Notes: a model not told the origin generated them from the sequence alone. 10,640 nt of DNA from a virus (IMGVR_UViG_2541047125_000015), one strand, 5' to 3'; positions 1 through 10,640 are shown, counted from the first letter of the stretch. Translations and numbers: made by a program.

Positions 1-51
1 TAATTCCTGGCTAAACATCAAAAAGGCGACGTTGCCAGCGTATCCGGCACG

Positions 52-237
52 ATGCAGGTCAGCCAGTGGACCGGACAGAACGGGGAAACGCGGCAGGGTT
101 ATCAGGTTATTGCAGACAGCGTAATCAGTGCCCGTGCGGCACGTCCTGGTGGGAGCCGACGCAAGACCACAGGCACACAGGGTAATCAGCCACCAGCGGG
201 AGGCGATGACCCTTACGGTGATGATATTCCGTTCTGA
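52..237 (+). CDS. SSB-like C-terminal fragment (single-stranded DNA-binding protein tail); probably a truncated or disrupted ssb
   Basis: ORF ends ...PPAGGDDPYGDDIPF, the acidic DDIPF tip typical of bacterial and phage SSB. Upstream residues QWTGQNGETRQGYQVIADSV align by eye with the E. coli SSB segment KWTDQSGQDRYTTEVVVNV. An in-frame TAA sits at 1..3 and there is no Shine-Dalgarno before ATG52, so this is not a normal full-length ssb. Confidence 0.45.
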   Translation: MQVSQWTGQNGETRQGYQVIADSVISARAARPGGSRRKTTGTQGNQPPAGGDDPYGDDIPF

Positions 238-249
238 GGGGTGGGGACG

Positions 250-522
250 ATGGTACATGACCGCATAGCGGAAGAACTGGAGGCGAAAGGCTTTTACCGG
301 AGAGCGTCGGCGCGATGGGGTGAAGTCATGCAACTGGTGGAGACAGACAAGGAACGGCATCAGGTTACGATGCGACGGCTGGAATGTTCCAGGAAGGCAC
401 AGAGGCCACCGGAGCCGCCGGATAATTACGGAGACCTGAAAAAGGCGGTCGATCGCACTTATGCCGAAATGGGTATGGATGGTGCTGGTGATGAAATATG
501 GCGAAATTACCAGGACAGATAA
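250..522 (+). CDS. PerC-family transcriptional regulator-like small protein
   Basis: 91 aa from ATG250 (track start GTG241). MVHDRIAEELEAKGFYRRASARWGEVM...DKERHQVTMRRLEC fits the E..LE.KG.WRRAA.RW...D.ER.....RR..C pattern I recall for prophage PerC-like proteins. Recalled from memory, not searched. Start lies 13 nt after the SSB-like stop. Confidence 0.6.
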   Translation: MVHDRIAEELEAKGFYRRASARWGEVMQLVETDKERHQVTMRRLECSRKAQRPPEPPDNYGDLKKAVDRTYAEMGMDGAGDEIWRNYQDR

Positions 523-529
523 TCACACA

Positions 530-550
530 GCCGGAGCAATCCGGCTTTTT
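530..550 (+). terminator. Rho-independent terminator after the PerC-like gene
   Basis: GCCGGA-gcaa-TCCGGC hairpin followed directly by TTTTT, starting 8 nt after the TAA at 520..522. Confidence 0.55.
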
Positions 551-570
551 GTCATGTTTTGTAAATTATT

Positions 571-600
571 TGTTCGTGGTTGTTCCACGTTGTTCGCTGA
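571..600. repeat. Three helically phased TGTTC(G/C) direct repeats
   Basis: tgttcgtggt / tgttccacgt / tgttcgctga: TGTTC begins at 571, 581 and 591, exactly 10 bp apart. The same motif recurs at 8248 and 8258. Confidence 0.5.
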
Positions 601-672
601 CCGGATCGGCATATTTTACCCGAACTGAATCATGATTATTCTCGCCCGTGGTGCCAGGACGCTGGGGCCACT

Positions 673-719
673 TTCCCGCCTGTTAATGTGCTCGCCAATA
701 TTCATTACCAGGCGGGAAA
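673..719. promoter_or_regulatory. 16-bp imperfect inverted repeat upstream of the capsid gene
   Basis: ttcccgcctgttaatg (673..688) and cattaccaggcgggaa (704..719) are reverse complements with one mismatch, separated by 15 nt; no T-tract follows, so it is not a canonical terminator. Confidence 0.4.
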
Positions 720-809
720 ACGATCGGTGCGATTGCTGATTTCCTTATGAAAAACGGTTGAGTGTTTGCCGCGTCCTGGAGTTCCTTACTTAACTTCAGG
801 ACTTTTTTT

Positions 810-1967
810 ATGCCGAGAATAATCGAATTACGCCAGCAGAAAACCGCCATTAAAAATCAGATGCGCGACATGCTGGAGAACGCGGAAAAAGAAAACCGCA
901 GCCTTAACGATGCTGAGGGCGCAAAATTTGACGAATTACGCGCTAAAGCTGAATCCCTCGATAAAGACATCTCCCGCCTTGAGGCCGTTGCTGACGAAGA
1001 GCGCAGTAAACCAGGCAAAAACAGCCAGACCACTGACCCCGCCGAACTACGTCACTACATTCTGACAGGTGAAACCCGCGCATTGAGTACAGGCGTTCCC
1101 GCTGATGGTGGTTATACCGTTATCCCCGAACTGAACACCGAAATCATGCGAATGCTGACGGATGAATCCACCATGCGCCGCATCTGTACCGTGAAGAAAA
1201 TCAGCAGCAACGAGTTTAAGCAGCTTGTTTCCGCTGGCGGTGCGACCGTTAACCACGGTGAAGAGGGTAAGGCACGCGAACAGACCAGCACCCCGCAGAT
1301 TAACGAGGTGAGCATTAAGCTGTATCCGGTCTATGCGTACCCGCGCACCACGCAGGAAATCGTGGATTTTTCCGATGTGGACATCCTTTCATGGCTGACG
1401 GGCGAGATTGGCGACACCTTCACGGAAACCGAAGAAAGCGATCTGGTTGTGGGCGACGGTGACAAAAAAGCAAAAGGTTTTTTATCCGTACCCCGTGCAG
1501 AGAAGAACGACAAAGAGCGTGATTTTGGTACGTTGCAGGTAATTAAACCTTCCGAATCTCTGGCGTGGACATCTGCGGACCCGCTGATCGACCTGAAATT
1601 TGCATTACGTAAAAAATACCGCAAAAACGCGGTTTGGGTGGTTAACTCCACGACGGCGGCAAAACTCCAGAAGGTGAAGAACGCGAACGGTGATTACATC
1701 TGGCGCGACCGTTTACAGGCGGGTGATCCTGATACGTTGCTGGGCCTTCCGGTCGAATATCTGGAGTTTATGCCTGATAACGTTATTGCCCTGGGTGACT
1801 TCAAACGCGGTTACTACATTGTTGATCACGAAACAGGTGTTCGCACCAGACCGGACAACCTCACAGAGCCGGGCTTTATCAAAATTTTCACGCAGAAATA
1901 TTTAGGCGGTGGCGTGGTGGATTCGAACGCTATAAAGATTCTGGAACTGCCGCAGGACGACGATTAA
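810..1967 (+). CDS. Phage major capsid protein, HK97 family
   Basis: 385 aa from ATG810 (track ORF starts at GTG762; ATG810 has a better-placed SD-like cagga). N-terminal charged coiled-coil delta-like segment, then a large domain with motifs typical of HK97-fold capsids (ADGGYTVIPEL..., GDFKRGYYIVDH). Length and position next to the protease fit. Confidence 0.9.
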   Translation: MPRIIELRQQKTAIKNQMRDMLENAEKENRSLNDAEGAKFDELRAKAESLDKDISRLEAVADEERSKPGKNSQTTDPAELRHYILTGETRALSTGVPADGGYTVIPELNTEIMRMLTDESTMRRICTVKKISSNEFKQLVSAGGATVNHGEEGKAREQTSTPQINEVSIKLYPVYAYPRTTQEIVDFSDVDILSWLTGEIGDTFTETEESDLVVGDGDKKAKGFLSVPRAEKNDKERDFGTLQVIKPSESLAWTSADPLIDLKFALRKKYRKNAVWVVNSTTAAKLQKVKNANGDYIWRDRLQAGDPDTLLGLPVEYLEFMPDNVIALGDFKRGYYIVDHETGVRTRPDNLTEPGFIKIFTQKYLGGGVVDSNAIKILELPQDDD

Positions 1968-1976
1968 CAGCACACC

Positions 1977-2006
1977 GAAGGGGCTAAAAAGCCCCTTCTC
2001 TGTTTT
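1977..2006 (+). terminator. Rho-independent terminator after the capsid gene
   Basis: GAAGGGGC-taaaaa-GCCCCTTC (8-bp perfect stem) followed by tctgtttt, 10 nt after the capsid stop. Confidence 0.7.
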
Positions 2007-2021
2007 ACAGGTGAAAAAATT

Positions 2022-2579
2022 ATGATGAGTATGGAAATCCGGTCATCGGAAATCACCACCAGCGGCAGCAACACGCTTACGGGCTACGTTGTTCGCTGGG
2101 ATAACCTTTCAGAACTGCTATGGGGCGAATTTTACGAAAAATTCCAGCGGGGGGCGTTTACTGAATGGCTTGCGGTGGGTAATGACGTTCGCGGCCTGTA
2201 TGAGCATGACCACAGCATGTTACTGGGGCGCACCCGTTCCGGTACGCTGAGACTGGAAGAGGATGACACAGGGTTACGTTTTGAACTGATCCCACCGGAT
2301 ACCAGCACAGGGCGGGACGTTATCGAACTGGTTAAACGTGGTGACATCTCGGGCATGAGCTTTGGCTTTCGTTCCCGTAAGGATGTATGGGATACGACAG
2401 TCGATCCATGTGTGCGTACTGTACTGATAGCGGAACTGTACGAAATTACCGTGACATCCGTACCGGCTTACCCTGATTCCGGCGTGGAGCTGGCCCGCCG
2501 TTCCCTGTATGAGCAGCACCCTGAAAAAATGCCTCGTGCGGATAATCGCCGCTGGTGGGCGGATTTAGCGGGGGTGTGA
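2022..2579 (+). CDS. Prohead (maturation) protease, HK97 family
   Basis: 185 aa; GYVVRWDNLSE...RGLYEHDHSMLLGRTRSGTLRLEEDDTGLRFELIPPDTSTGRDVIELVKRGDISGMSFGF is the conserved core of HK97-type prohead proteases. SD-like aggtga 8 nt upstream. Confidence 0.9.
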   Translation: MMSMEIRSSEITTSGSNTLTGYVVRWDNLSELLWGEFYEKFQRGAFTEWLAVGNDVRGLYEHDHSMLLGRTRSGTLRLEEDDTGLRFELIPPDTSTGRDVIELVKRGDISGMSFGFRSRKDVWDTTVDPCVRTVLIAELYEITVTSVPAYPDSGVELARRSLYEQHPEKMPRADNRRWWADLAGV

Positions 2580-2580
2580 T

Positions 2581-3792
2581 ATGTGGCCTTTCAGAAGAAA
2601 AAAAGAGCAGCGCAGCATGACGCTTGATGAGTTTATGGCGCTGGCTGGCACATCGAACACGGGGGCGGGTGAGTACGTATCATCGGGGACAGCGGAATCA
2701 CTGCCCGCCGTCATGAACGCCGTCACGGTCATCTCTGAGGCGGTGGCTACCATGCCGTGTTACCTGTACCTGGTACGCAATGAGAAGGGGAAGGAGGCCC
2801 GAGAGTGGCTTGATTCTCATCCGGTCGATCACATCCTCAACGAGCGCCCGAACGCATGGCAAACCCCCTACCAGTTTAAGCGAATGATGATCCGCCACTG
2901 CCTGTTAAACGGTAATGCTTATGCGGTGATTCGGTGGGGGCGTGATGGTTTTCCGGTGGCTTTACATCCTTACCCGCCGCAGTCGGTGAACGTGGAGCAG
3001 ACAGGTGAGCATAACTGGCGCTACTGCATCACTGACGCCTACACCGGAAACACCCGCAACTATTTACCGTGGGAGGTTCTCCACCTTCGTTACTCCACGG
3101 ATGACGGTTTTATGGGGCGCTCACCTGTAACCATCTGCCGCGAATCGCTGGGGCTTGGGCTGGCCCAACAACGCCACGGCGCGAGCGTGATGCGTGATGG
3201 CATGATGGCGGCAGGGGTTATCACGTCAGGCGAGTGGCTGGACGGCGTGAAGGGTAAACAGGCATTAGCCGCACTGGAACGCTACAAAGGGGCCAGAAAC
3301 GCCGGAAAAACGCCCATCCTTGAAGGGGGTATGAGCTATCAGCAGCTGGGCATGAGTAATCAGGATGCTGAATGGCTGGCCTCCCGTCGCTTCACCATTG
3401 AAGACATCGCCCGAATGTTCAACGTCTCGCCGATTTTTTTGCAGGAATACAGCAACAGCACCTACAGCAATTTCAGCGAGGCAAGCCGCGCATTTCTCAC
3501 CATGACGATGCGCCCGTGGCTGGCGAACTTTGAGCAGCAGATAAAAAACGCCCTGCTGGTGGCCTCGCCTGTACCTGGTATCCGGTATCAGGTGGAGTTT
3601 GACAGCGCGGACCTGTTACGGGCCACACCTGGCGAACGCTTTGCCACCTATGAACGCGGCATCAAATCCGGCGTTATGTGCCCGAACGAAGCCCGCGAAC
3701 GTGAAGGGCTGTCCCCGCGTGATGGTGGTGATGAGTTCAGCCAGGCATGGAAACAGGAAGTAAAAATCAGCGAGGGAGAAAAACCGGAATGA
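2581..3792 (+). CDS. Phage portal protein, HK97 family
   Basis: 403 aa; portal-like blocks (LPAVMNAVTVISEAVATMP, NGNAYAVI, FTIEDIARMFNVSPIFLQEYSNSTYSNFSEASRAF). Start is 1 nt after the protease stop. Confidence 0.9.
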   Translation: MWPFRRKKEQRSMTLDEFMALAGTSNTGAGEYVSSGTAESLPAVMNAVTVISEAVATMPCYLYLVRNEKGKEAREWLDSHPVDHILNERPNAWQTPYQFKRMMIRHCLLNGNAYAVIRWGRDGFPVALHPYPPQSVNVEQTGEHNWRYCITDAYTGNTRNYLPWEVLHLRYSTDDGFMGRSPVTICRESLGLGLAQQRHGASVMRDGMMAAGVITSGEWLDGVKGKQALAALERYKGARNAGKTPILEGGMSYQQLGMSNQDAEWLASRRFTIEDIARMFNVSPIFLQEYSNSTYSNFSEASRAFLTMTMRPWLANFEQQIKNALLVASPVPGIRYQVEFDSADLLRATPGERFATYERGIKSGVMCPNEAREREGLSPRDGGDEFSQAWKQEVKISEGEKPE

Positions 3793-4127
3793 ACATAGGG
3801 CGACTGCGTGACAGGATAACGATTCAGACCCTGAAACAGACCAGGGATATAACCGGCGAAATACTCGAAACGTGGGTGGACGGTCACACACTCTGGGCAA
3901 GCGTGAACATGATCAGCAGCAAGGAGGCCATTTCATCGGGTGCAGAACTGGCGACTGGAACGGTAAGGATATGGATACGCTACAGGAAGGACATCAACGC
4001 CACCAGCCGGATAAAGGTCAATACGGGGCCGCTGGCGGGGCGTGTACTGAATATCATCGGGCAGCCGCTGCCGGATGCCGCCAGGACACGCCTTGAAATT
4101 CTTTGTCGTGAGGGCGCGGAAAAATGA
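3789..4127 (+). CDS. Head-tail adaptor / head closure protein (SPP1 gp16-like head-tail joining family)
   Basis: 113 aa from ATG3789, which overlaps the portal stop as ATGA (track ORF starts further upstream at 3747 inside the portal). RDRITIQTLKQTRDITGEILETWVDGHTLWASV...VRIWIRYRKDI...RLEILCRE matches the family pattern R.RI.I....TRD..G...E.W....WA.V ... IRYR.DI. Confidence 0.75.
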   Translation: MNIGRLRDRITIQTLKQTRDITGEILETWVDGHTLWASVNMISSKEAISSGAELATGTVRIWIRYRKDINATSRIKVNTGPLAGRVLNIIGQPLPDAARTRLEILCREGAEK

Positions 4128-4420
4128 CAGAAGAACTTATCACCCTGGAAGAAGTGAAACTCCATTGCCGCATCGATGGCGACGAGGAAGACCAGTTAAT
4201 CAGCGGATACATCGCCGCATCGCTTGAGGCGTGCCAGATACACATAGGCAGGCGCTTTGATGACGGGCTGGAGTTCACGCCAGCCATAAAGATTGGCTGC
4301 ATGATGTTTATCGCTCACCTGTATGAAAATCGCCAGATTGTCGCGGATAACGCAAAAACACGCGTACCCATGACGATTGGTGCACTCTGGACGGCTTACC
4401 GTGATGTGGGGGTGTACTGA
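4124..4420 (+). CDS. gp6-like head-tail connector protein
   Basis: 98 aa; LITLEEVKLHCRIDGDEEDQLISGYIAASLEA is the characteristic N-terminus of gp6-like connector proteins. Start overlaps the adaptor stop by 4 nt. Confidence 0.8.
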   Translation: MTEELITLEEVKLHCRIDGDEEDQLISGYIAASLEACQIHIGRRFDDGLEFTPAIKIGCMMFIAHLYENRQIVADNAKTRVPMTIGALWTAYRDVGVY

Positions 4421-4860
4421 TGCCGTGGCAACCATTAAGACGATGCACAGAACCAGGCTGTAACAGGCGCGTGAAGTCCGGCAAGTGTGAGGAGCACAGG
4501 CGGGCGGCATGGCGTGCAGAGGATGCCAGACGAGGACACCGCCGCGCGCGTGGGTACTCCAGACAGTGGGACAAATACCGCGCCATGTATCTGAGTAAAA
4601 ACCCGTTATGCGTGCGATGCCTTGAGAAGGGGATATATACGCCCGCCGTGGTGGTGGATCACATTATCCCGATTAATGGCGGTGATGATGTTCTCTTCTG
4701 GCCCGAATGGAACCATCAGCCATTGTGCCAGGCGTGCCATAACCAGAAAACGAAATGGCTTGATCCGGCAACAAAAAGCAAGCGTGCCGCAGGTGGATTT
4801 CGTGAAGAGGAAGAACGGGCCGCTAACCGCAATAACTGGATGTATGACGCTGATGAATGA
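4420..4860 (+). CDS. HNH endonuclease (phage packaging-associated)
   Basis: 146 aa; Cys-rich N-terminus (CTEPGC...GKCEEH), then VVDHIIPI...NHQPLCQACHNQKT, the HNH His/Asn and zinc-binding Cys/His pattern. Sits immediately upstream of terS as in HK97-like phages; start overlaps the connector stop by 1 nt. Confidence 0.85.
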   Translation: MPWQPLRRCTEPGCNRRVKSGKCEEHRRAAWRAEDARRGHRRARGYSRQWDKYRAMYLSKNPLCVRCLEKGIYTPAVVVDHIIPINGGDDVLFWPEWNHQPLCQACHNQKTKWLDPATKSKRAAGGFREEEERAANRNNWMYDADE

Positions 4861-5026
4861 GCGGGAACAAAACCGCCTTATCCGTGGACTTATAAGGCAG
4901 CGTGACGCATGGAAGACACAGGAAACAGGGCATAAAGATAAAGCGTCAGGACGCGCAGAACGCATCACAGCGAAGCGATTAACCGACCGTGACTGCGAGG
5001 TTATGGAATGTTTCCGCAATCGCTGA
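4844..5026 (+). CDS. Possible small basic ORF between HNH and terS (uncertain)
   Basis: Only the distal 60 codons of track ORF 4622..5026 lie outside the HNH gene. ATG4844 or ATG4853 would give about 58-61 aa (MNEREQNRLIRGLIRQRDAWK...). No convincing SD; may be non-coding cos-flanking DNA. Confidence 0.2.
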   Translation: MTLMNEREQNRLIRGLIRQRDAWKTQETGHKDKASGRAERITAKRLTDRDCEVMECFRNR

Positions 5027-5037
5027 TGAGGCTGTAT

Positions 5038-5082
5038 GACGGGGTGGGGGGCGTTTTCAGGACAAACCCGCCCCCGCCGGGC
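5038..5082. promoter_or_regulatory. Candidate cos / terminase recognition region (G-run and C-run dyad)
   Basis: gacggggtggggggcg ... cccgcccccgccgggc; gggggcg (5047..5053) is complementary to cgccccc (5069..5075). It lies in the 288-bp gap between HNH and terS, where HK97-like phages place cos. An AT-rich stretch follows. Confidence 0.3.
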
Positions 5083-5148
5083 ACCGAACGCCTCCTCAAA
5101 TTTTTATGCACGGGAATTTTTTGAAAAATAATCTGACGAAAAATAAAC

Positions 5149-5505
5149 ATGGCAAGACCACCGAAAGCCCCCGCCTACCTTGATGACATCGCCGTAAAGC
5201 AGTGGCGGGAAAAATCGCGCCAGCTTGCGGAACGGGGAGACCTCACCCCCGCCGACTGGAGTAATCTCGAACTGTATTGCGTCAACTACTCGATATACAG
5301 GAAAGCCGTCGCAGACCTTGCGGCACGCGGGTTCAGCATTGTTAACAGTCAGGGCGGAGAGAGCAGAAACCCCGCATTAAGCGCGAAATCCGACGCTGAA
5401 AGAGTGATGATAAAAATGGCCTCCTTGCTTGGTTTTGACCCGATAAGCCGCCGTAAAAATCCACCGGAAACAGAAGAAGAGGACGAGCTTGACCACCTGG
5501 AATAA
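5149..5505 (+). CDS. terS: Terminase small subunit, P27 family
   Basis: 118 aa; LTPADWSNLELYCVNYSIYRKAVADLAARGF...NPALSAKSDAERVMIKMASLLGF fits the P27-type small terminase pattern, and it sits directly upstream of terL. Confidence 0.85.
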   Translation: MARPPKAPAYLDDIAVKQWREKSRQLAERGDLTPADWSNLELYCVNYSIYRKAVADLAARGFSIVNSQGGESRNPALSAKSDAERVMIKMASLLGFDPISRRKNPPETEEEDELDHLE

Positions 5506-7150
5506 GTACGCAGAAGACGTAAAAACGGGCAAAATTCCGGCCTGTAAACGGTTAAAACAGGCCGTTAAACGGTACTTTTCGGACCTTAAAAGTCCCCTTT
5601 ACACGTTCGATAGTGAGGTTGTGGAGCGGTTTATTGCCTTTTCAAGGGTGTGCCCGCACGTAAAAGGGCCGTTGCGTGGCAGACCCATTGAGCTGGAGCC
5701 GTGGCAGCAGTTCGCCTTTGCGTGCATCCTGGGTTTTAAGGTTAAGGCCACCGGACGGCGCAAATACTCGAGCGCTTTTATCGAAGTACCGCGAAAAAAT
5801 GCGAAATCCACGACCGCCGCGATTCTGGCTGACTGGTTTCTGATTATGGAGAACGGGCAGCAGGATATTTACACCGCAGCGGTGAGCCGTGACCAGGCAC
5901 GGATCGTGTTTGATGATGCGCGTCAGATGTGCCTTTTATCCCGACCGTTACGCAGGCGGGTGAATATTCAGGCCCACAAGGTGATACACCCGAAAACCAA
6001 CAGCCTGTTAAAGCCGCTGGCAGCAAAAGCGGCAACCATCGAGGGGACAAACCCGAGTCTTGCCATTGTGGACGAATATCACCTGCACCCCGATAACGGC
6101 GTTTATTCCGCGCTTGAGCTGGGGATGGGTGCACGTCCCGAAGGGCTGTTATTTGCCATTACCACATCGGGAAGTAACGTCGTTTCAGCCTGTAAGCAGC
6201 ACTATGATTATTGCTGCCAGATCCTGGACGGCGAAGAGGTCAACGAATCGCTTTTTGTGCTGATTTACGAGCTGGACGATGAAAACGAGGTTGACGATCC
6301 GGCGATGTGGATAAAGGCGAATCCCAATATCGATGTTTCCGTTGATCGTGAAAAACTGGCCTCAACCATCCAGAAAGCGCGGGGTATTCCGTCGCAGTGG
6401 GTGGAGATGATGACAAAGCGGTTTAACATCTGGTGCCAGGGGGCCACCCCGTGGATGGGTAACGGGGCGTGGGCTGAGTGTGCCGGAACGTTCACGGAGG
6501 AGGATTTACACGGCCAGGAATGTTACGCGGGGCTTGATTTGTCATCCACAAGCGACATTTCCAGCGTGTGCTATGCCTTTCCGGTCGGCAAAAAAATTAT
6601 GCTGCTTTCCCGTCACTATCTGCCGGAATTTCAGCTACAGAACCCCGCCAACAAGAACCGGGCCATTTATCGCCAGTGGGCTAAATCGGGCTGGTTGCGG
6701 ATAACGCCGGGCGACTGCATTGATTACGACCGGATCCGCGATGACATCATGGAGGACGCGGAAAAATTTGATATCAGGCTGGTGGGCTTTGATACGTGGA
6801 ACGCCACGCATCTCAGGACGCAATTACAGGGGGCAGGGTTTGAGGTTGAGCCGTTCCCGCAAACCTATCTGAGATTCAGTCCGGCGGCGAAATCGTTCGA
6901 AGTTTTTGTTAACCGCAGGGTGATAGTCCATCGTGATGATCCGGTGTTGTCGTGGTCGATGAGTAACGTCGTGATGCAGAGTGACGCGAACGCCAATATC
7001 AAGCCAAACAAGAAAAAATCACCGAACAAGATAGACCCGAGCGTGGCGGCACTGATGGCGTTTGGCACATTCCAGGCAGAGCATGAAGATTTTGCTTTTG
7101 ATATAAGCGACAGCCACCGCGAAAAACTGGAAGAATTTAACGGGGTGTGA
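5489..7150 (+). CDS. terL: Terminase large subunit
   Basis: 553 aa; an ATPase-like N-terminal region (PRKNAKSTTAA) and a nuclease-like C-terminal region. Starts at TTG5489, the only start codon after the in-frame stop at 5444..5446, with SD gagga 5 nt upstream. Overlaps terS by 17 nt. Confidence 0.9.
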   Translation: MTTWNKYAEDVKTGKIPACKRLKQAVKRYFSDLKSPLYTFDSEVVERFIAFSRVCPHVKGPLRGRPIELEPWQQFAFACILGFKVKATGRRKYSSAFIEVPRKNAKSTTAAILADWFLIMENGQQDIYTAAVSRDQARIVFDDARQMCLLSRPLRRRVNIQAHKVIHPKTNSLLKPLAAKAATIEGTNPSLAIVDEYHLHPDNGVYSALELGMGARPEGLLFAITTSGSNVVSACKQHYDYCCQILDGEEVNESLFVLIYELDDENEVDDPAMWIKANPNIDVSVDREKLASTIQKARGIPSQWVEMMTKRFNIWCQGATPWMGNGAWAECAGTFTEEDLHGQECYAGLDLSSTSDISSVCYAFPVGKKIMLLSRHYLPEFQLQNPANKNRAIYRQWAKSGWLRITPGDCIDYDRIRDDIMEDAEKFDIRLVGFDTWNATHLRTQLQGAGFEVEPFPQTYLRFSPAAKSFEVFVNRRVIVHRDDPVLSWSMSNVVMQSDANANIKPNKKKSPNKIDPSVAALMAFGTFQAEHEDFAFDISDSHREKLEEFNGV

Positions 7151-7164
7151 ATGAGGTTCCAGGC

Positions 7165-7446
7165 ATGACAGAGGCCGAAATACTGGGATTAATCCGCCGC
7201 GTTGCCGGAATCAGCCAGCAGGCTGACGAACAGGCCGCGCAGCCGGACAGCGTGACCGCCGAAAATTATGCGCGTGTGGTTGCTGAGGTGATGCGCCGTG
7301 ATGGTATCCAGCTTAACGATGTAGATATGCGCAACATACGGATCCGCGTTCTTGAAATGCTGGCCTACCGTCGCCGCGTTGAGATGTATCGGGAGAAAGA
7401 GAAAATTACTTACCACTGGAAGAAGCCGGAACGATTGCGGCGGTAA
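7165..7446 (+). CDS. Small hypothetical protein downstream of terL
   Basis: 93 aa from ATG7165 (SD gagg 8 nt upstream; track start GTG7147 overlaps the terL stop). Protein-like composition (MTEAEILGLIRRVAGISQQADEQ...RRRVEMYREKEK); no family recognised. Confidence 0.5.
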   Translation: MTEAEILGLIRRVAGISQQADEQAAQPDSVTAENYARVVAEVMRRDGIQLNDVDMRNIRIRVLEMLAYRRRVEMYREKEKITYHWKKPERLRR

Positions 7447-7461
7447 CTTGCTGATATTCCC

Positions 7462-7505
7462 GATAACGCAAAATTGCGCTGGCTGACTTGTTGCATTGCA
7501 AAAAG
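7462..7505. repeat. Direct repeat A, copy 1 (about 43 bp)
   Basis: gataacgcaaaattgcgctggctgacttgttgcattgcaaaaag. Shares GATAACGC..ATTGCGCTGGCTG...TGCA with copy 2 and contains the palindrome ttgcaTtgcaa. Confidence 0.55.
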
Positions 7506-7600
7506 TTAAGCAGGAAGGCACGGCCTGTAAGATGGGATGCAGTAAGTAGTTCAAGGCTACCTTGTGCTGGCACGCACAGTTAAGCCGTCGGTGCTGGATA

Positions 7601-7615
7601 TCCCCCACTGGGGGA
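7601..7615. promoter_or_regulatory. Perfect 15-bp palindrome TCCCCCA-c-TGGGGGA
   Basis: Read directly from the sequence; lies between the two A repeats. Confidence 0.5.
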
Positions 7616-7647
7616 AAAGCTGGCTACATCCCTCACATCTGAGGACT

Positions 7648-7690
7648 GATAACGCGACATTGCGCTGGCTGGCAAAGTGCAAAATTGCAC
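7648..7690. repeat. Direct repeat A, copy 2 (about 43 bp)
   Basis: gataacgcgacattgcgctggctggcaaagtgcaaaattgcac; roughly 70% identical to copy 1 by eye; ends in the palindrome gtgcaAAATtgcac. Confidence 0.55.
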
Positions 7691-7697
7691 GATGGCC

Positions 7698-7858
7698 TAA
7701 CCCATTGATTATTTCGAAAACCTGCAATGCAGGAAATCGGGGAAGTAAGCCTAAGCTATTGATTGTTTCGAAAACCCTCATTGGGGGATGTCGGGAAAGT
7801 AAGACTAACCCATTGATTCTTCCACAATCCTCAATTTGAGGAGGCAGGGAACATCCCC
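7698..7858. repeat. Tandem array of three ~53-55-bp direct repeat units (B1-B3), each with a TTTCGAAA-type palindrome and a short hairpin
   Basis: Units at 7698..7750, 7751..7805 and 7806..7858 share TAAcCcATTGATT - TTTCGAAAACC - 13-nt hairpin - G-rich tail. Hairpins: cctgcAATgcagg, ccctcATTggggg, cctcaATTtgagg. Confidence 0.65.
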
Positions 7859-7894
7859 TAAATCCGGTGATGTATTCGGCCCCTTTAACGGGTA

Positions 7895-7930
7895 TTGCGA
7901 TTTTCGCAACCCCCTACGAAATTTTCGTAG
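7895..7930. promoter_or_regulatory. Two adjacent dyads built on CGAAA/TTTCG half-sites
   Basis: ttgcg-atttt-cgcaa (7895..7909) and the perfect inverted repeat CTACGAAA-t-TTTCGTAG (7914..7930); same half-site as the TTTCGAAA cores of the B units. Confidence 0.45.
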
Positions 7931-7955
7931 TTTAATTACTCGTCAGATTAATCGC

Positions 7956-8007
7956 TAACCCACTGATATTTTCGGAAACCTCAATTTGAGGAGGCCGGAA
8001 CGTCTAC
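7956..8007. repeat. Fourth B-type repeat unit (B4), about 100 bp downstream of the tandem array
   Basis: taacccactgatattttcggaaacctcaatttgaggaggccggaacgtctac; same architecture, and its hairpin cctcaATTtgagg is identical to that of B3. Confidence 0.6.
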
Positions 8008-8240
8008 ATAGCTGCATCGCCGTAATGATGATTCAGCCCACCAGCCAAATCAGCACAGCAACGACAGAATAGCCCGACACAGAAAAACCACGAATATGGG
8101 GTTTTTGTTATGGCATGGTCATGATGACCGCCCCTGCTCTGAATGGTGGAAATCACCACGCAGATCATCAACCAGCTTCATGACGGATAGCCGGAAAATG
8201 ATAACGGTTAAGCAAAACCATCAGCAAATTTCCCTTTTGT

Positions 8241-8304
8241 TTGTTATTGTTCGTCGTTGTTCGTAGAGCTTCAACGAAATGTGTGGTCAGTTGTGTGGTC
8301 AGTT
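8241..8304. promoter_or_regulatory. Phased TGTTCGT repeats plus a perfect 12-bp tandem duplication just upstream of int
   Basis: TGTTCGT at 8248 and 8258 (10-bp phasing, preceded by ttgtttgttat); gtgtggtcagtt repeated exactly twice at 8281..8292 and 8293..8304, 36 bp before the int start. Confidence 0.5.
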
Positions 8305-8339
8305 TTTTGGGGCTGGAGGACTGAAAAGAGGATCTGATA

Positions 8340-9560
8340 GTGGGAAAAGCACTAAACAAACTGAGCGATTCGACATTAAAAAAATTGGCGGCTGTCCAGG
8401 CAGAAAAAGAGCGTTTTTACTCCGACGGGGGCGGGCTGGAGATTAAACACTCAAAAGGCGGAAAATTAACCTGGTATTTCCGGTACCGAACGGGAGGCCG
8501 TGAGGTTGCCGCAGAGCGGTTAAAGCTGGGGGCTTACCCTGAATTGTCGCTGAAAGCTGCAAGGGAAAAACGCGCACAGTGCCGGGCATGGCTGGCTGAG
8601 GGTAAAAACCCCCGTTATGAGTTGTGCGCCACAGTACAGGAAGCGCTAAAACCCGTTACGGTGAAGGAGGCGATTAACTACTGGCTGGAGGAATATGCGA
8701 AGGATAACCGCAAAGACTACATAAAGCTGGTGCAACGTATGGATAAGCACATCATTTGCCATATAGGGGCAATTCCTCTTGATAAATGCGACACAAGGCA
8801 GTGGATCGCATGTTTTGACCGTGTACGAAAAAAAGCACCAGTAGCAGCGGGGCACGTCATGCAAACCTGCAAACAGGCGCTAAAGTTCTGCCGCAGGAGA
8901 CGCTACGCGTTCAGTAATGCCCTGGACGATTTGATCGTCAGCGATGTGGGTAAGAGAGCAGAAATTCGCGAGAGGGTGCACAGTAACAGCGAATTAAAGG
9001 AAATTTTACGCGCTATTGATGGTGATGTGTTCGCGCCTTACTACAGCGCGTTAATGCGCTTGCTGATTGTGTTCGGGTGCAGAACTGCAGAGGTCAGACT
9101 TTCAGAGATCAAAGAATGGGATCTGAAAGAAATGTTGTGGACAGTGCCAAAAGAGCACAGCAAAACGAAGGTAACGATATTCAGGCCAATCCCCGATGGC
9201 ATTTTGCCGTTCATTCAGAAGCTGGTGGATCAGAACCGGCATACAGGGTTATTGCTCGGAGAACTGAAAAAAGATACCACGGTAGCGCAATATGGGCGAA
9301 ATGCGCATAAGCGGCTTAACCAGGAACATTGGTCACTGCATGACTTTCGCCACACGTTTACAACGATGCTGAACGATTTAGGTGTCGATCCGCATATCGT
9401 GGAGCACATCACAGCGCATCAGATGCCCGGTCAGCAAAAAACCTATAACCATTCACGCTATTTACAGGCGAAGCGGGACGCTCTGAATCTGTGGGTTGAG
9501 CGCCTCGATGTGCTGGCTGGAAATCATGAAAATATTGTTATGCTGAAGGTGGCCAAATGA
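8340..9560 (+). CDS. int: Tyrosine site-specific integrase, P4 type
   Basis: 406 aa from GTG8340 with SD aagagga upstream. N-terminal arm-binding-type region (LEIKHSKGGKLTWYFRYRTGGREV...LGAYPELSLKAAREKR) and C-terminal catalytic region with LHDFRHTF (H-x-x-R) and a downstream Tyr (KTYNHSRYL). Confidence 0.9.
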   Translation: MGKALNKLSDSTLKKLAAVQAEKERFYSDGGGLEIKHSKGGKLTWYFRYRTGGREVAAERLKLGAYPELSLKAAREKRAQCRAWLAEGKNPRYELCATVQEALKPVTVKEAINYWLEEYAKDNRKDYIKLVQRMDKHIICHIGAIPLDKCDTRQWIACFDRVRKKAPVAAGHVMQTCKQALKFCRRRRYAFSNALDDLIVSDVGKRAEIRERVHSNSELKEILRAIDGDVFAPYYSALMRLLIVFGCRTAEVRLSEIKEWDLKEMLWTVPKEHSKTKVTIFRPIPDGILPFIQKLVDQNRHTGLLLGELKKDTTVAQYGRNAHKRLNQEHWSLHDFRHTFTTMLNDLGVDPHIVEHITAHQMPGQQKTYNHSRYLQAKRDALNLWVERLDVLAGNHENIVMLKVAK

Positions 9561-10330
9561 AATTACCTAAAAGACTCTATTATCCGTTACCTGAAGCGGC
9601 AGAAAAGTTAGGCTGTGCAATAAAAGATCTTTATCATTACGCATATATAGGTGCTCTTAATATTTCTGTATATATACCAAAAATTGATGCTAAAAAATTC
9701 AATTTTTCATTATGTCATTTTATCAATGGTTGTAATGAGGAAGAATTAATAAAATATCCTTTCAATGATGAATCTGCTGTTTTTGGAAGTAATTTTACAG
9801 TTGGTTTAACTGGTGACACTGAATTTTTAGATAGTGCCATTATTGGTCCTGTAGGGAATTCTATCAAATGTTATTATGTTAGCAGCTTATCAGGGTTTTA
9901 TTATACTCCGGCATATGTTTTTGCTGATGTCGAATTTAGCATGAGACAATATATAAAATGTTCTCATCTTACGAATAAGTATGGTGATGATAATCTCATG
10001 TATGTTTTTTGTAAGGGTGGTTATGAATTTGATGTTAACTATTTGTGTGTGATGGCTAGTGATTTAGATAATATAAAAAATACGGGAGACTTCCCGAAGA
10101 TAACAGAAGATAGCCCAAAAGCATCGTCAAAAAGGAATGAGGTTATTTACTCTTTAATTAAACTTATTCCAGAAATGGGTGATGTAGACCTGGACACGGA
10201 ATCATTACCTAAAATAGCAGATTTAATTGATTCTATAGCTGCATCCAGAGGGATAGAATTTCCAAAAACACATTGGCAGACATGGCAAAAGTATTTGGGG
10301 CGTGAATCTCAACAAAAACGTAAAAAGTGA
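9557..10330 (+). CDS. AT-rich hypothetical protein (orphan cargo gene), translationally coupled to int
   Basis: 257 aa; ATG9557 overlaps the int stop as ATGA, with SD-like aaggtgg upstream. The DNA is visibly AT-rich (about one-third G+C by eye, versus about half in int) with AAA/ATT/TTT-rich codons. N-terminal RLYYPLPEAAEKLGCAIKDLYHYAYIG loosely resembles an AlpA/excisionase-type HTH; the rest matches nothing I recognise. Confidence 0.7.
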   Translation: MKLPKRLYYPLPEAAEKLGCAIKDLYHYAYIGALNISVYIPKIDAKKFNFSLCHFINGCNEEELIKYPFNDESAVFGSNFTVGLTGDTEFLDSAIIGPVGNSIKCYYVSSLSGFYYTPAYVFADVEFSMRQYIKCSHLTNKYGDDNLMYVFCKGGYEFDVNYLCVMASDLDNIKNTGDFPKITEDSPKASSKRNEVIYSLIKLIPEMGDVDLDTESLPKIADLIDSIAASRGIEFPKTHWQTWQKYLGRESQQKRKK

Positions 10331-10359
10331 TATCACGTGCTGGTAGTGTGATATCACAC
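10327..10359. promoter_or_regulatory. Two copies of the palindrome GTGATATCAC, 21 bp centre to centre (candidate operator)
   Basis: gtgatatcac at 10327..10336 (overlapping the orphan stop) and at 10348..10357, the latter within the 14-bp palindrome gtgtgatatcacac (10346..10359). Spacing is two helical turns. Confidence 0.5.
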
Positions 10360-10386
10360 AAACGGCGTTTTACTACCGCCTAGAAT

Positions 10387-10421
10387 CGTCCTCGTTCGGC
10401 AACGTTCGAGGACGTTTTTTT
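10387..10421 (+). terminator. Hairpin plus T7 tract abutting the alpA start codon (terminator or 5'-UTR structure)
   Basis: CGTCCTCG - 12-nt loop - CGAGGACG followed by ttttttt and then ATG10422. The 3' arm contains the only SD-like sequence (gagga) for alpA. Confidence 0.5.
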
Positions 10422-10640
10422 ATGAATCAAAATACACAATTTCAATCACTATCAGATCGCGTAATCCGTGAGGATGAATGCCGTAAGTTAACAGGAGTGT
10501 GCCGCACTACACGCTACGAACTGGAGAAAAAAGGGAATTTCCCGTCACGCCGTAATCTGGGTGGTCGTTCAGTAGGTTGGCTGCTTTCCGAGGTTATGGA
10601 ATGGGTTAAAAGCCGGGATCGTATTAATTCAGGCAAGGCA
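10422..10640 (+). CDS. alpA: AlpA-family phage regulatory protein (HTH), 3' end cut by the window
   Basis: MNQNTQFQSLSDRVIREDECRKLTGVCRTTRYELEKKGNFPSRRNLGGRSVGWLLSEVMEWV matches the AlpA/excisionase-like pattern (hydrophobic-R-x-x-E-x-x-x-x-TG-x-x-R-x-T-x-Y-x-x-x-x-x-G-x-FP...GGR.V.W...EV..W). The ORF runs to the last base of the window. Confidence 0.8.
   Translation, partial: MNQNTQFQSLSDRVIREDECRKLTGVCRTTRYELEKKGNFPSRRNLGGRSVGWLLSEVMEWVKSRDRINSGKA

Follow-up and report, generated by a model that had tools for sequence, protein, structure and literature searches.

A tail-less head and packaging module from Escherichia coli O157, part of a capsid-forming satellite of the EcCIEDL933 lineage in circularly permuted order

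The 10,640-nucleotide viral stretch IMGVR_UViG_2541047125_000015 (hereafter the window) carries, between positions 810 and 7150, the genes to build and fill an HK97-type phage head, with nothing tail-like behind them. What kind of element makes its own heads, and from where would it take its tails? A first-pass annotation of the sequence had proposed a capsid-forming phage-inducible chromosomal island (cf-PICI), a satellite that packages itself into its own small capsids and borrows the tails of a helper phage. Our analysis leaves little room for doubt that the window belongs to a cf-PICI from E. coli O157, of the EcCIEDL933 lineage. The element is already known: its family was reported in 2022-2023, a detailed study followed in 2025, and the head and packaging block of the window is nearly that of the prototype.

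Head and packaging genes and the complete island

Genes were called by an open reading frame (ORF) scan combined with Pfam and PHROG profile searches of the window, and all plausible long ORFs lie on the plus strand. The stretch from the capsid ATG (810) to the terL stop (7150) is one co-directional block in which all eight head and packaging genes listed by the first-pass annotation are present and intact, with unchanged boundaries, with Pfam scores above the gathering score in every case and in the order published for cf-PICIs. The block encodes a 385-aa major capsid protein with the HK97 fold and an N-terminal delta domain (810-1967; PF05065, E = 2e-61), whose SxGxxAD cleavage motif spans residues 93-99, followed by an S78 prohead serine protease (2022-2579; PF04586, 4e-46), a portal (2581-3792; PF04860, 1e-90), a head-closure protein (3789-4127; PF05521, 5e-24; phrog_25) and a gp6-like protein (4124-4420; PF05135, 8e-12; phrog_40). 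These two small head proteins bear opposite names in PHROG and in the cf-PICI papers: the former is Hc1 in PHROG and the "head-tail adaptor" of the papers, and the latter is Ad1 and the "head-tail connector", respectively. The packaging genes encode an HNH endonuclease, a packaging cofactor (4420-4860; PF01844, 2e-8; phrog_144, 8e-45), terS of the P27 family (5149-5505; PF05119, 1e-23), and terL with ATPase and nuclease parts and a TTG start (5489-7150; PF03354 and PF20441; phrog_9, 2e-181). As had been noticed, the genes overlap tightly, with ATGA overlaps at the portal/head-closure and head-closure/connector junctions and TGATG at connector/HNH; in addition, protease and portal meet at TGAtATG, and terS and terL overlap by 17 nt. 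Neither tail nor lysis genes were found in the window.

Comparison with EcCIEDL933 identifies this block. Positions 524-7458 of the window share 95.9% DNA identity with the prototype, and the encoded proteins are 99.0% (capsid), 93.2% (protease), 99.3% (portal), 94.6% (head-closure), 100% (connector), 99.3% (HNH), 99.2% (terS), and 96.6% (terL) identical; the integrase reaches 67.5%. The capsid protein is identical at 381 of 385 residues to PDB 9GYI, the capsid of EcCIEDL933 described by He et al. (10.1101/2025.02.11.637232). Residues D257, K290, D295, E319, and R345, the mutation of which abolished transfer (10.1101/2025.02.11.637232), are all conserved, as are the loop 227-248 and the SxGxxAD motif (93-99). 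The two islands also share the gene order from perC to orf93, the DUF927 type of primase, and an array of TTGTT units in the capsid leader and in the att arms. They differ in their attachment sites: EcCIEDL933 is located between roxA and phoQ in the EDL933 chromosome, where the tqsA and thiM sites are both empty, whereas the island of the window occupies the thiamine pyrophosphate (TPP) riboswitch of thiM. Further, a low-GC ORF of 257 aa (orf257) between int and alpA and a 74-aa variant of alpA are found in the window island and not in EcCIEDL933, and only the latter carries a further small ORF between perC and the capsid gene. The window variant joins the head module of the prototype to another integrase, for which the thiM riboswitch is the target.

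The complete island was recovered from closed genomes. The window is 100% identical, as two pieces, to three closed E. coli O157 chromosomes; in that of E. coli O157:H7 MB41-1 (L001), window positions 4-8306 correspond to 19615-27917 and positions 8237-10640 to 12001-14404. Window bases 1-3 read TAA, and MB41-1 has GAC there, so that ahead of position 4 the window does not derive from exactly this genome. Compared with an O157:H7 strain without the island, the inserted DNA in MB41-1 amounts to 16,079 bp, with the order int, orf257, alpA, Icd-like genes, four small ORFs, DUF4222, the DUF927 primase (710 aa), two small ORFs, SSB, perC, the head and packaging block, and orf93. The flanks are chromosomal, with thiM on one side and an HTH-like gene followed by rcnR on the other. 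A 14-nt duplication, AGAAAT(G/A)CCCGTAT, flanks the island; it falls within the aptamer of the TPP riboswitch of thiM. At the empty site of the other O157:H7 strain this riboswitch is intact; in MB41-1 its 5' half reaches only 20 bits, where the gathering score is 54. The island parts the riboswitch 5' half and the promoter from thiMD by 16 kb (L001 11864-11915 and 27981-28075).

The first-pass annotation had suggested looking in the flanks for tail, lysis, and lysogeny genes that would make this an ordinary prophage, and for int, alpA, and a primase-replicase to the left. The gene list of the complete 16,079-bp island contains no tail, lysis, or immunity/repressor module, and since only 5.4 kb of the island lie beyond the window, 2.1 kb of which is primase, the remainder is too short to hold one. 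Integrase, alpA, and primase are all part of the island, but the first two are inside the window at its right (8340-10640), not to its left. Judged by SatelliteFinder (PMC10085698) and He et al. (10.1101/2025.02.11.637232), every feature of a cf-PICI that can be examined in silico was found: a size of 16,079 bp in a range of about 10-18 kb, an integrase at one end followed by alpA and primase-replicase, no holin, lysis, or tail genes in the gene list, and capsid and TerL proteins that are set apart from their phage homologues and side with the gammaproteobacterial cf-PICI clade (99% identity of the capsid to EcCIEDL933, and ranked tblastn). The marks of an HK97-like temperate phage, namely contiguous tail, lysis, and immunity genes and the order terS-terL-portal-protease-capsid, are absent.

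The relatedness of TerL was assessed by ranking tblastn matches against 50,697 phage records. TerL is 81, 81, 69, and 69% identical in four records and at most 35.5% identical in all real phages, which by this ranking places it outside the bona fide phages, as the satellite reading had required, and agrees with the published phylogeny (10.1101/2022.09.08.507074). Three of the four records are of satellite size (16.5, 10.7, and 15.3 kb) and are filed as phages. The GenBank "phage" records LR881103, OR544138, and OR544139 are satellite-size cf-PICIs. The fourth match is an unannotated 106.5-kb Klebsiella record (PQ569648), the last ~16 kb of which resemble a permuted satellite; this record is possibly a chimeric assembly.

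Permuted order of the window and alternative readings

The window shows the island in circularly permuted form, and terL and int, neighbours here, are not adjacent in the integrated order. In the window, the ends of the island meet at a 70-bp arm repeat (8237-8306) that consists of three TTGTT units followed by two copies of GTGTGGTCAGT. In MB41-1 this repeat is perfect and occurs once in each island arm, at a distance of 85 nt from the left end of the island and 63 nt from the right (L001 11902-12070 and 27848-27994), with an island length of 15,847 bp between the repeats. The repeat is distinct from the 14-nt core, in which comparison with the empty site places the real crossover. An attP made by the integrase is predicted to have the core flanked by two copies of the 70-bp repeat at a spacing of 232 bp. 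This layout is seen in the vB_KppS-Ant record, a satellite from an induced lysate with two arm repeats 233 bp apart. The junction of the window has a single 70-bp copy and lacks the 232 bp that include the crossover core.

Could the junction at 8237-8306 nevertheless be the genuine attP of an excised circle or packaged concatemer, and hence direct evidence of mobilisation? Both halves of the window are 100% identical to one island, their order fits a circle or concatemer, and cf-PICI DNA is common in viromes (10.1101/2025.02.11.637232). We consider this unlikely, as a true attP needs two repeat copies and the core, and both an assembler and RecA would be expected to collapse a perfect 70-bp repeat. 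The database searches speak against it as well: the collapsed junction, searched exactly and with its 70-bp core masked, had 0 matches in viral and metagenome contigs, as had the predicted true attP; the junction region is absent from plasmid records; and no reciprocal scar was found in 5,426 complete E. coli genomes. Neither form of the junction occurs in the viral, metagenome, and plasmid collections. No result contradicts the classification of the element as an EcCIEDL933-type satellite. Its head-closure protein differs from that of EcCIEDL933 at 6 of 112 residues, so that the choice of tails could differ from that of the prototype. The junction probably represents either an assembly path closed via the perfect repeat or a product of homologous recombination by RecA, and the permuted order is not to be read as proof of mobilisation. 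More generally, perfect 70-bp arm repeats can give a false one-copy attP in assemblies.

The nature of the element itself has also been weighed against other origins of a head module. The presence of phage homologues for every head and packaging gene, together with the HK97-like fold and maturation motif, would suit a decayed HK97-like prophage that had lost its tail, lysis, and immunity genes, instead of a dedicated satellite. However, this is very improbable given that all ORFs are intact and tightly coupled, that the insertion is a precise 16,079 bp with an intact empty site, that the left half of the island is of PICI type (int, alpA, and the DUF927 primase), and that TerL, 69% identical in records of satellite size, reaches only 35.5% in the best-matching real phage. 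In addition, the near-identical prototype is a working satellite, and the gene order is not that of HK97. More remote still is a capsid system domesticated by the host, for example a gene transfer agent (GTA) that packages random host DNA. Although the Rhodobacter GTA capsids 6TB9 and 6TBA are the next PDB sequence matches after 9GYI (E = 1e-46), the island has its own integrase, a replication module, a cos-type P27-family terS with HNH, and discrete insertion boundaries, and EcCIEDL933 packages itself exclusively.

Relatives of the island and its proposed cycle

The cf-PICI assignment is placed in context by several related islands. A sister cf-PICI at tqsA in the O157:H7 strain SS TX 754-1 (L002) shares 97.0% DNA identity over window positions 4-7484 and has the same arm architecture, three TTGTT units and then two 12-nt tandem units, with a different integrase (about 70% DNA identity) and a different target gene. 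Between its two arms the repeats agree at only 76%, and they therefore cannot collapse. The right arm of the window island has about 430 non-coding bases more than that of this sister, in which window positions 7485-7913 are absent. MB41-1 does not carry a second sister island, and its tqsA gene is intact. The thiM site is used with the same integrase by islands of other cargo. In two of the compared records (L005 and L008), the int-orf257-alpA module at thiM is joined to a D5_N primase and a PF03864 gene (lambda gpE-type capsid) instead of the HK97-type block, and therefore the integration module is shuffled between satellite types.

More distant cf-PICIs from Klebsiella and Pasteurella (vB_KppS-Ant, LR881103, 16.5 kb; Pmp7; Pmp8) are also of satellite size and have the same module order, with TerL identities of 69-81% and DNA identities to the window of only about 70-77%. 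The vB_KppS-Ant record has the same permuted order as the window, with terS first and int after terL. Directly after terL it encodes a full-length tape-measure homologue (L003 2036-4333; phrog_2854, E = 2e-176) that the window island does not have; this gene is unexpected in a class of elements defined by the lack of tail genes.

The first-pass annotation had also stated that the order of the head genes is inverted relative to HK97-like phages, and the HK97 record supports this. HK97 has the order terS, terL, portal, protease, capsid, Ad1, Hc1, and tail genes, with HNH 319 nt from the right cos end. The order capsid-protease-portal and the pair Hc1-Ad1 in the window are truly reversed, and the adjacency HNH-cos-terS-terL is common to the window and the circularised HK97 genome. 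HK97-like phages (HK97, HK106, and HK446) and the window share an HK97-fold capsid with a delta domain, an S78 protease, an HNH protein with a terminase of P27/HK97 type, and gp6-like and gp7-like head completion proteins. These phages have 40 kb, whereas the island has 16 kb and no tail, lysis, or immunity genes. Identity to the HK97 proteins is highest for the head-closure protein (49%, to gp7), followed by HNH (39%), protease (35%), terL (28%), and portal (26%); similarity was undetectable for the capsid, connector, and terS in this comparison. That the head-closure protein is the most phage-like of all fits a tail-facing part that has to attach to the tails of phages. Classical PICIs of E. 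coli (EcCICFT073 and EcCIED1a) have the same type of left half (int, alpA, primase, and perC) and helper-induced control by alpA. They have no capsid, portal, or terL genes and redirect the packaging of the helper instead.

The life cycle has been established experimentally for EcCIEDL933. Its inducers are the helpers HK106 and HK446, alpA is indispensable, and each packaging gene is needed for transfer of the island but not of the phage (10.1101/2022.09.08.507074). Its small capsids consist of island protein and have T=4 geometry, versus T=7 in HK97-like phages; tails are the sole helper part needed, and the adaptor/connector pair decides which tails are captured (10.1101/2025.02.11.637232). 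The suggestion in the first-pass annotation that the connector and adaptor set the choice of helper tails has thus since been shown in the prototype. Because protein identities to EcCIEDL933 are 93-100%, we infer the same cycle for the window island. A helper prophage, as HK106 or HK446 does for EcCIEDL933, would turn on alpA, and AlpA would be needed for excision and for expression of the island genes. Replication of the island would rely on the DUF927 primase-helicase that it encodes. The capsid protein would then come from the operon at 810-7446; the S78 protease is expected to trim it after the delta domain, and it would build small T=4 heads on the portal of the island itself. TerS, TerL, and HNH of the island would recognise and cut its cos and fill the small heads with island DNA only, and the head-closure and gp6-like proteins would form the docking surface for helper tails, presumably the only structural part that is borrowed. 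With their own heads and tails captured from different phages, cf-PICIs spread genes across species, as published since 2022.

The cos region of the island is predicted at 5027-5148, where a G-run, a spacer, a C-run, and an A/T-rich stretch lie directly 5' of terS. In HK97, cos is located between HNH and terS and ends 49 nt before terS, and the vB_KppS-Ant record begins and ends in the corresponding HNH-terS spacer. Between the HK97 cos region and window positions 4861-5160, only chance 7-8-mers are alike, and the prediction is therefore one of position and architecture.

Regulatory signals and other features of the window

Three TTGTT units in 10-bp phase are present on the plus strand in the leader of the capsid operon (570-594), and the same phased array recurs in the arm repeat (8237-8261), with 0 such runs expected by chance. 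The integrated island carries it in both att arms. EcCIEDL933 and the tqsA island have the array at four places, in the left arm, the right arm, the capsid leader, and the int-alpA spacer, where three to five phased units lie on the other strand; the arrays in L026 are at 4240, 5616-5650 (minus strand), 11883, and 19468. According to published work, excision and late expression depend on AlpA, which also activates its own promoter; the phased array is therefore a good candidate for an AlpA operator. We therefore tentatively propose, as a model that we regard as possible but somewhat short of probable, that one protein, most likely AlpA, acts directly via a common operator of three or more phased TTGTT units at both att arms, in the capsid leader, and, in islands of the EcCIEDL933 type, in its own promoter region, and that the splitting of the thiM aptamer frees thiMD from thiamine control in lysogens. 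A shared TTGTT operator would wire excision and head production to one switch, and the link between att arms, capsid leader, and the EcCIEDL933-type alpA promoter region makes this a testable regulatory model.

Several hairpins lie on the plus strand around the capsid gene. One that resembles a terminator is found 3' of perC (529-551), and a hairpin of 11 pairs followed by seven T residues ends at the capsid ATG (773-809), where it may act as a terminator-like or translational control element. Downstream of the capsid gene, a strong hairpin with a T-run (1977-2008) is terminator- or attenuator-like, and HK97 has a putative terminator at the same place, after its capsid gene. A promoter scan of the window returned fewer sigma-70-like sites than shuffled sequences, and none before the capsid gene.

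The non-coding stretch of 893 bases at 7447-8339, of which 7447-8236 form the right arm, contains further repeats. Four 54-nt units (7695-7856 and 7953-8006) have a conserved 5' half and a variable palindrome of 5-6 bp, which differs from unit to unit except between the last two. Read in antisense, each of the four is similar to a 45-nt segment of roi, the anti-repressor gene of Stx and lambdoid phages, with identity as high as 97.7% over 43 nt. RNA folding of both strands of these units gave z-scores of -1.5 to +0.2, no better than shuffles, and does not support a stable RNA. A 24-nt repeat is present in the same arm (7462-7485 and 7648-7671). Outside the window, just 3' of the DUF927 primase gene, a tandem 21-nt repeat beginning TAACCCGCAAAAG (L001 18599-18640) is conserved in the sister island and is a candidate replication-origin iteron.

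The remaining genes of the window, likewise on the plus strand, complete the picture of the island. The window start cuts an SSB gene, the 3' part of which (4-237) maps to the SSB coding sequence of MB41-1 and matches PF00436 below the Pfam cut-off (E = 4.8e-5, 23.8 bits versus 26), and a PerC-family regulator follows (250-522; PF06069, E = 1e-43), which is also a RefSeq coding sequence in MB41-1. Two small conserved ORFs without an assigned function, which the first-pass annotation did not list, accompany the packaging genes. The 60-aa orf60 (4844-5026; phrog_3173, 4e-36) overlaps the HNH gene by 17 nt and is annotated in MB41-1, in the tqsA sister strain, and in L026; the 93-aa orf93 (7165-7446; phrog_1561, 2e-56) lies behind terL. 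No tRNA gene was found in the window, and an Rfam scan of its whole length gave one sub-threshold snoRNA match, attributable to chance.

The tyrosine integrase (8340-9560; PF13356 and PF00589) has an arm-binding domain, and its stop codon overlaps the start of orf257 (9557-10330; GC content 0.32-0.38) in a further ATGA junction outside 810-7150. orf257 adjoins the integrase gene in 10 of the 10 places examined. It belongs to no Pfam, PHROG, or PADLOC family, its homologues are hypothetical enterobacterial proteins only, and no PDB fold matched its AlphaFold model (pLDDT 78) at an E below 0.3; its role may be that of cargo or of a regulator. The gene for AlpA, the master regulator of PICIs, is cut 6 nt before its stop by the end of the window (10422-10640; PF05930 for the full gene; phrog_2790, 8e-18). 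Two GTGATATCAC palindromes lie 5' of alpA (10328-10358), and, as at the capsid gene, a hairpin followed by seven T residues ends directly at its ATG (10390-10421).

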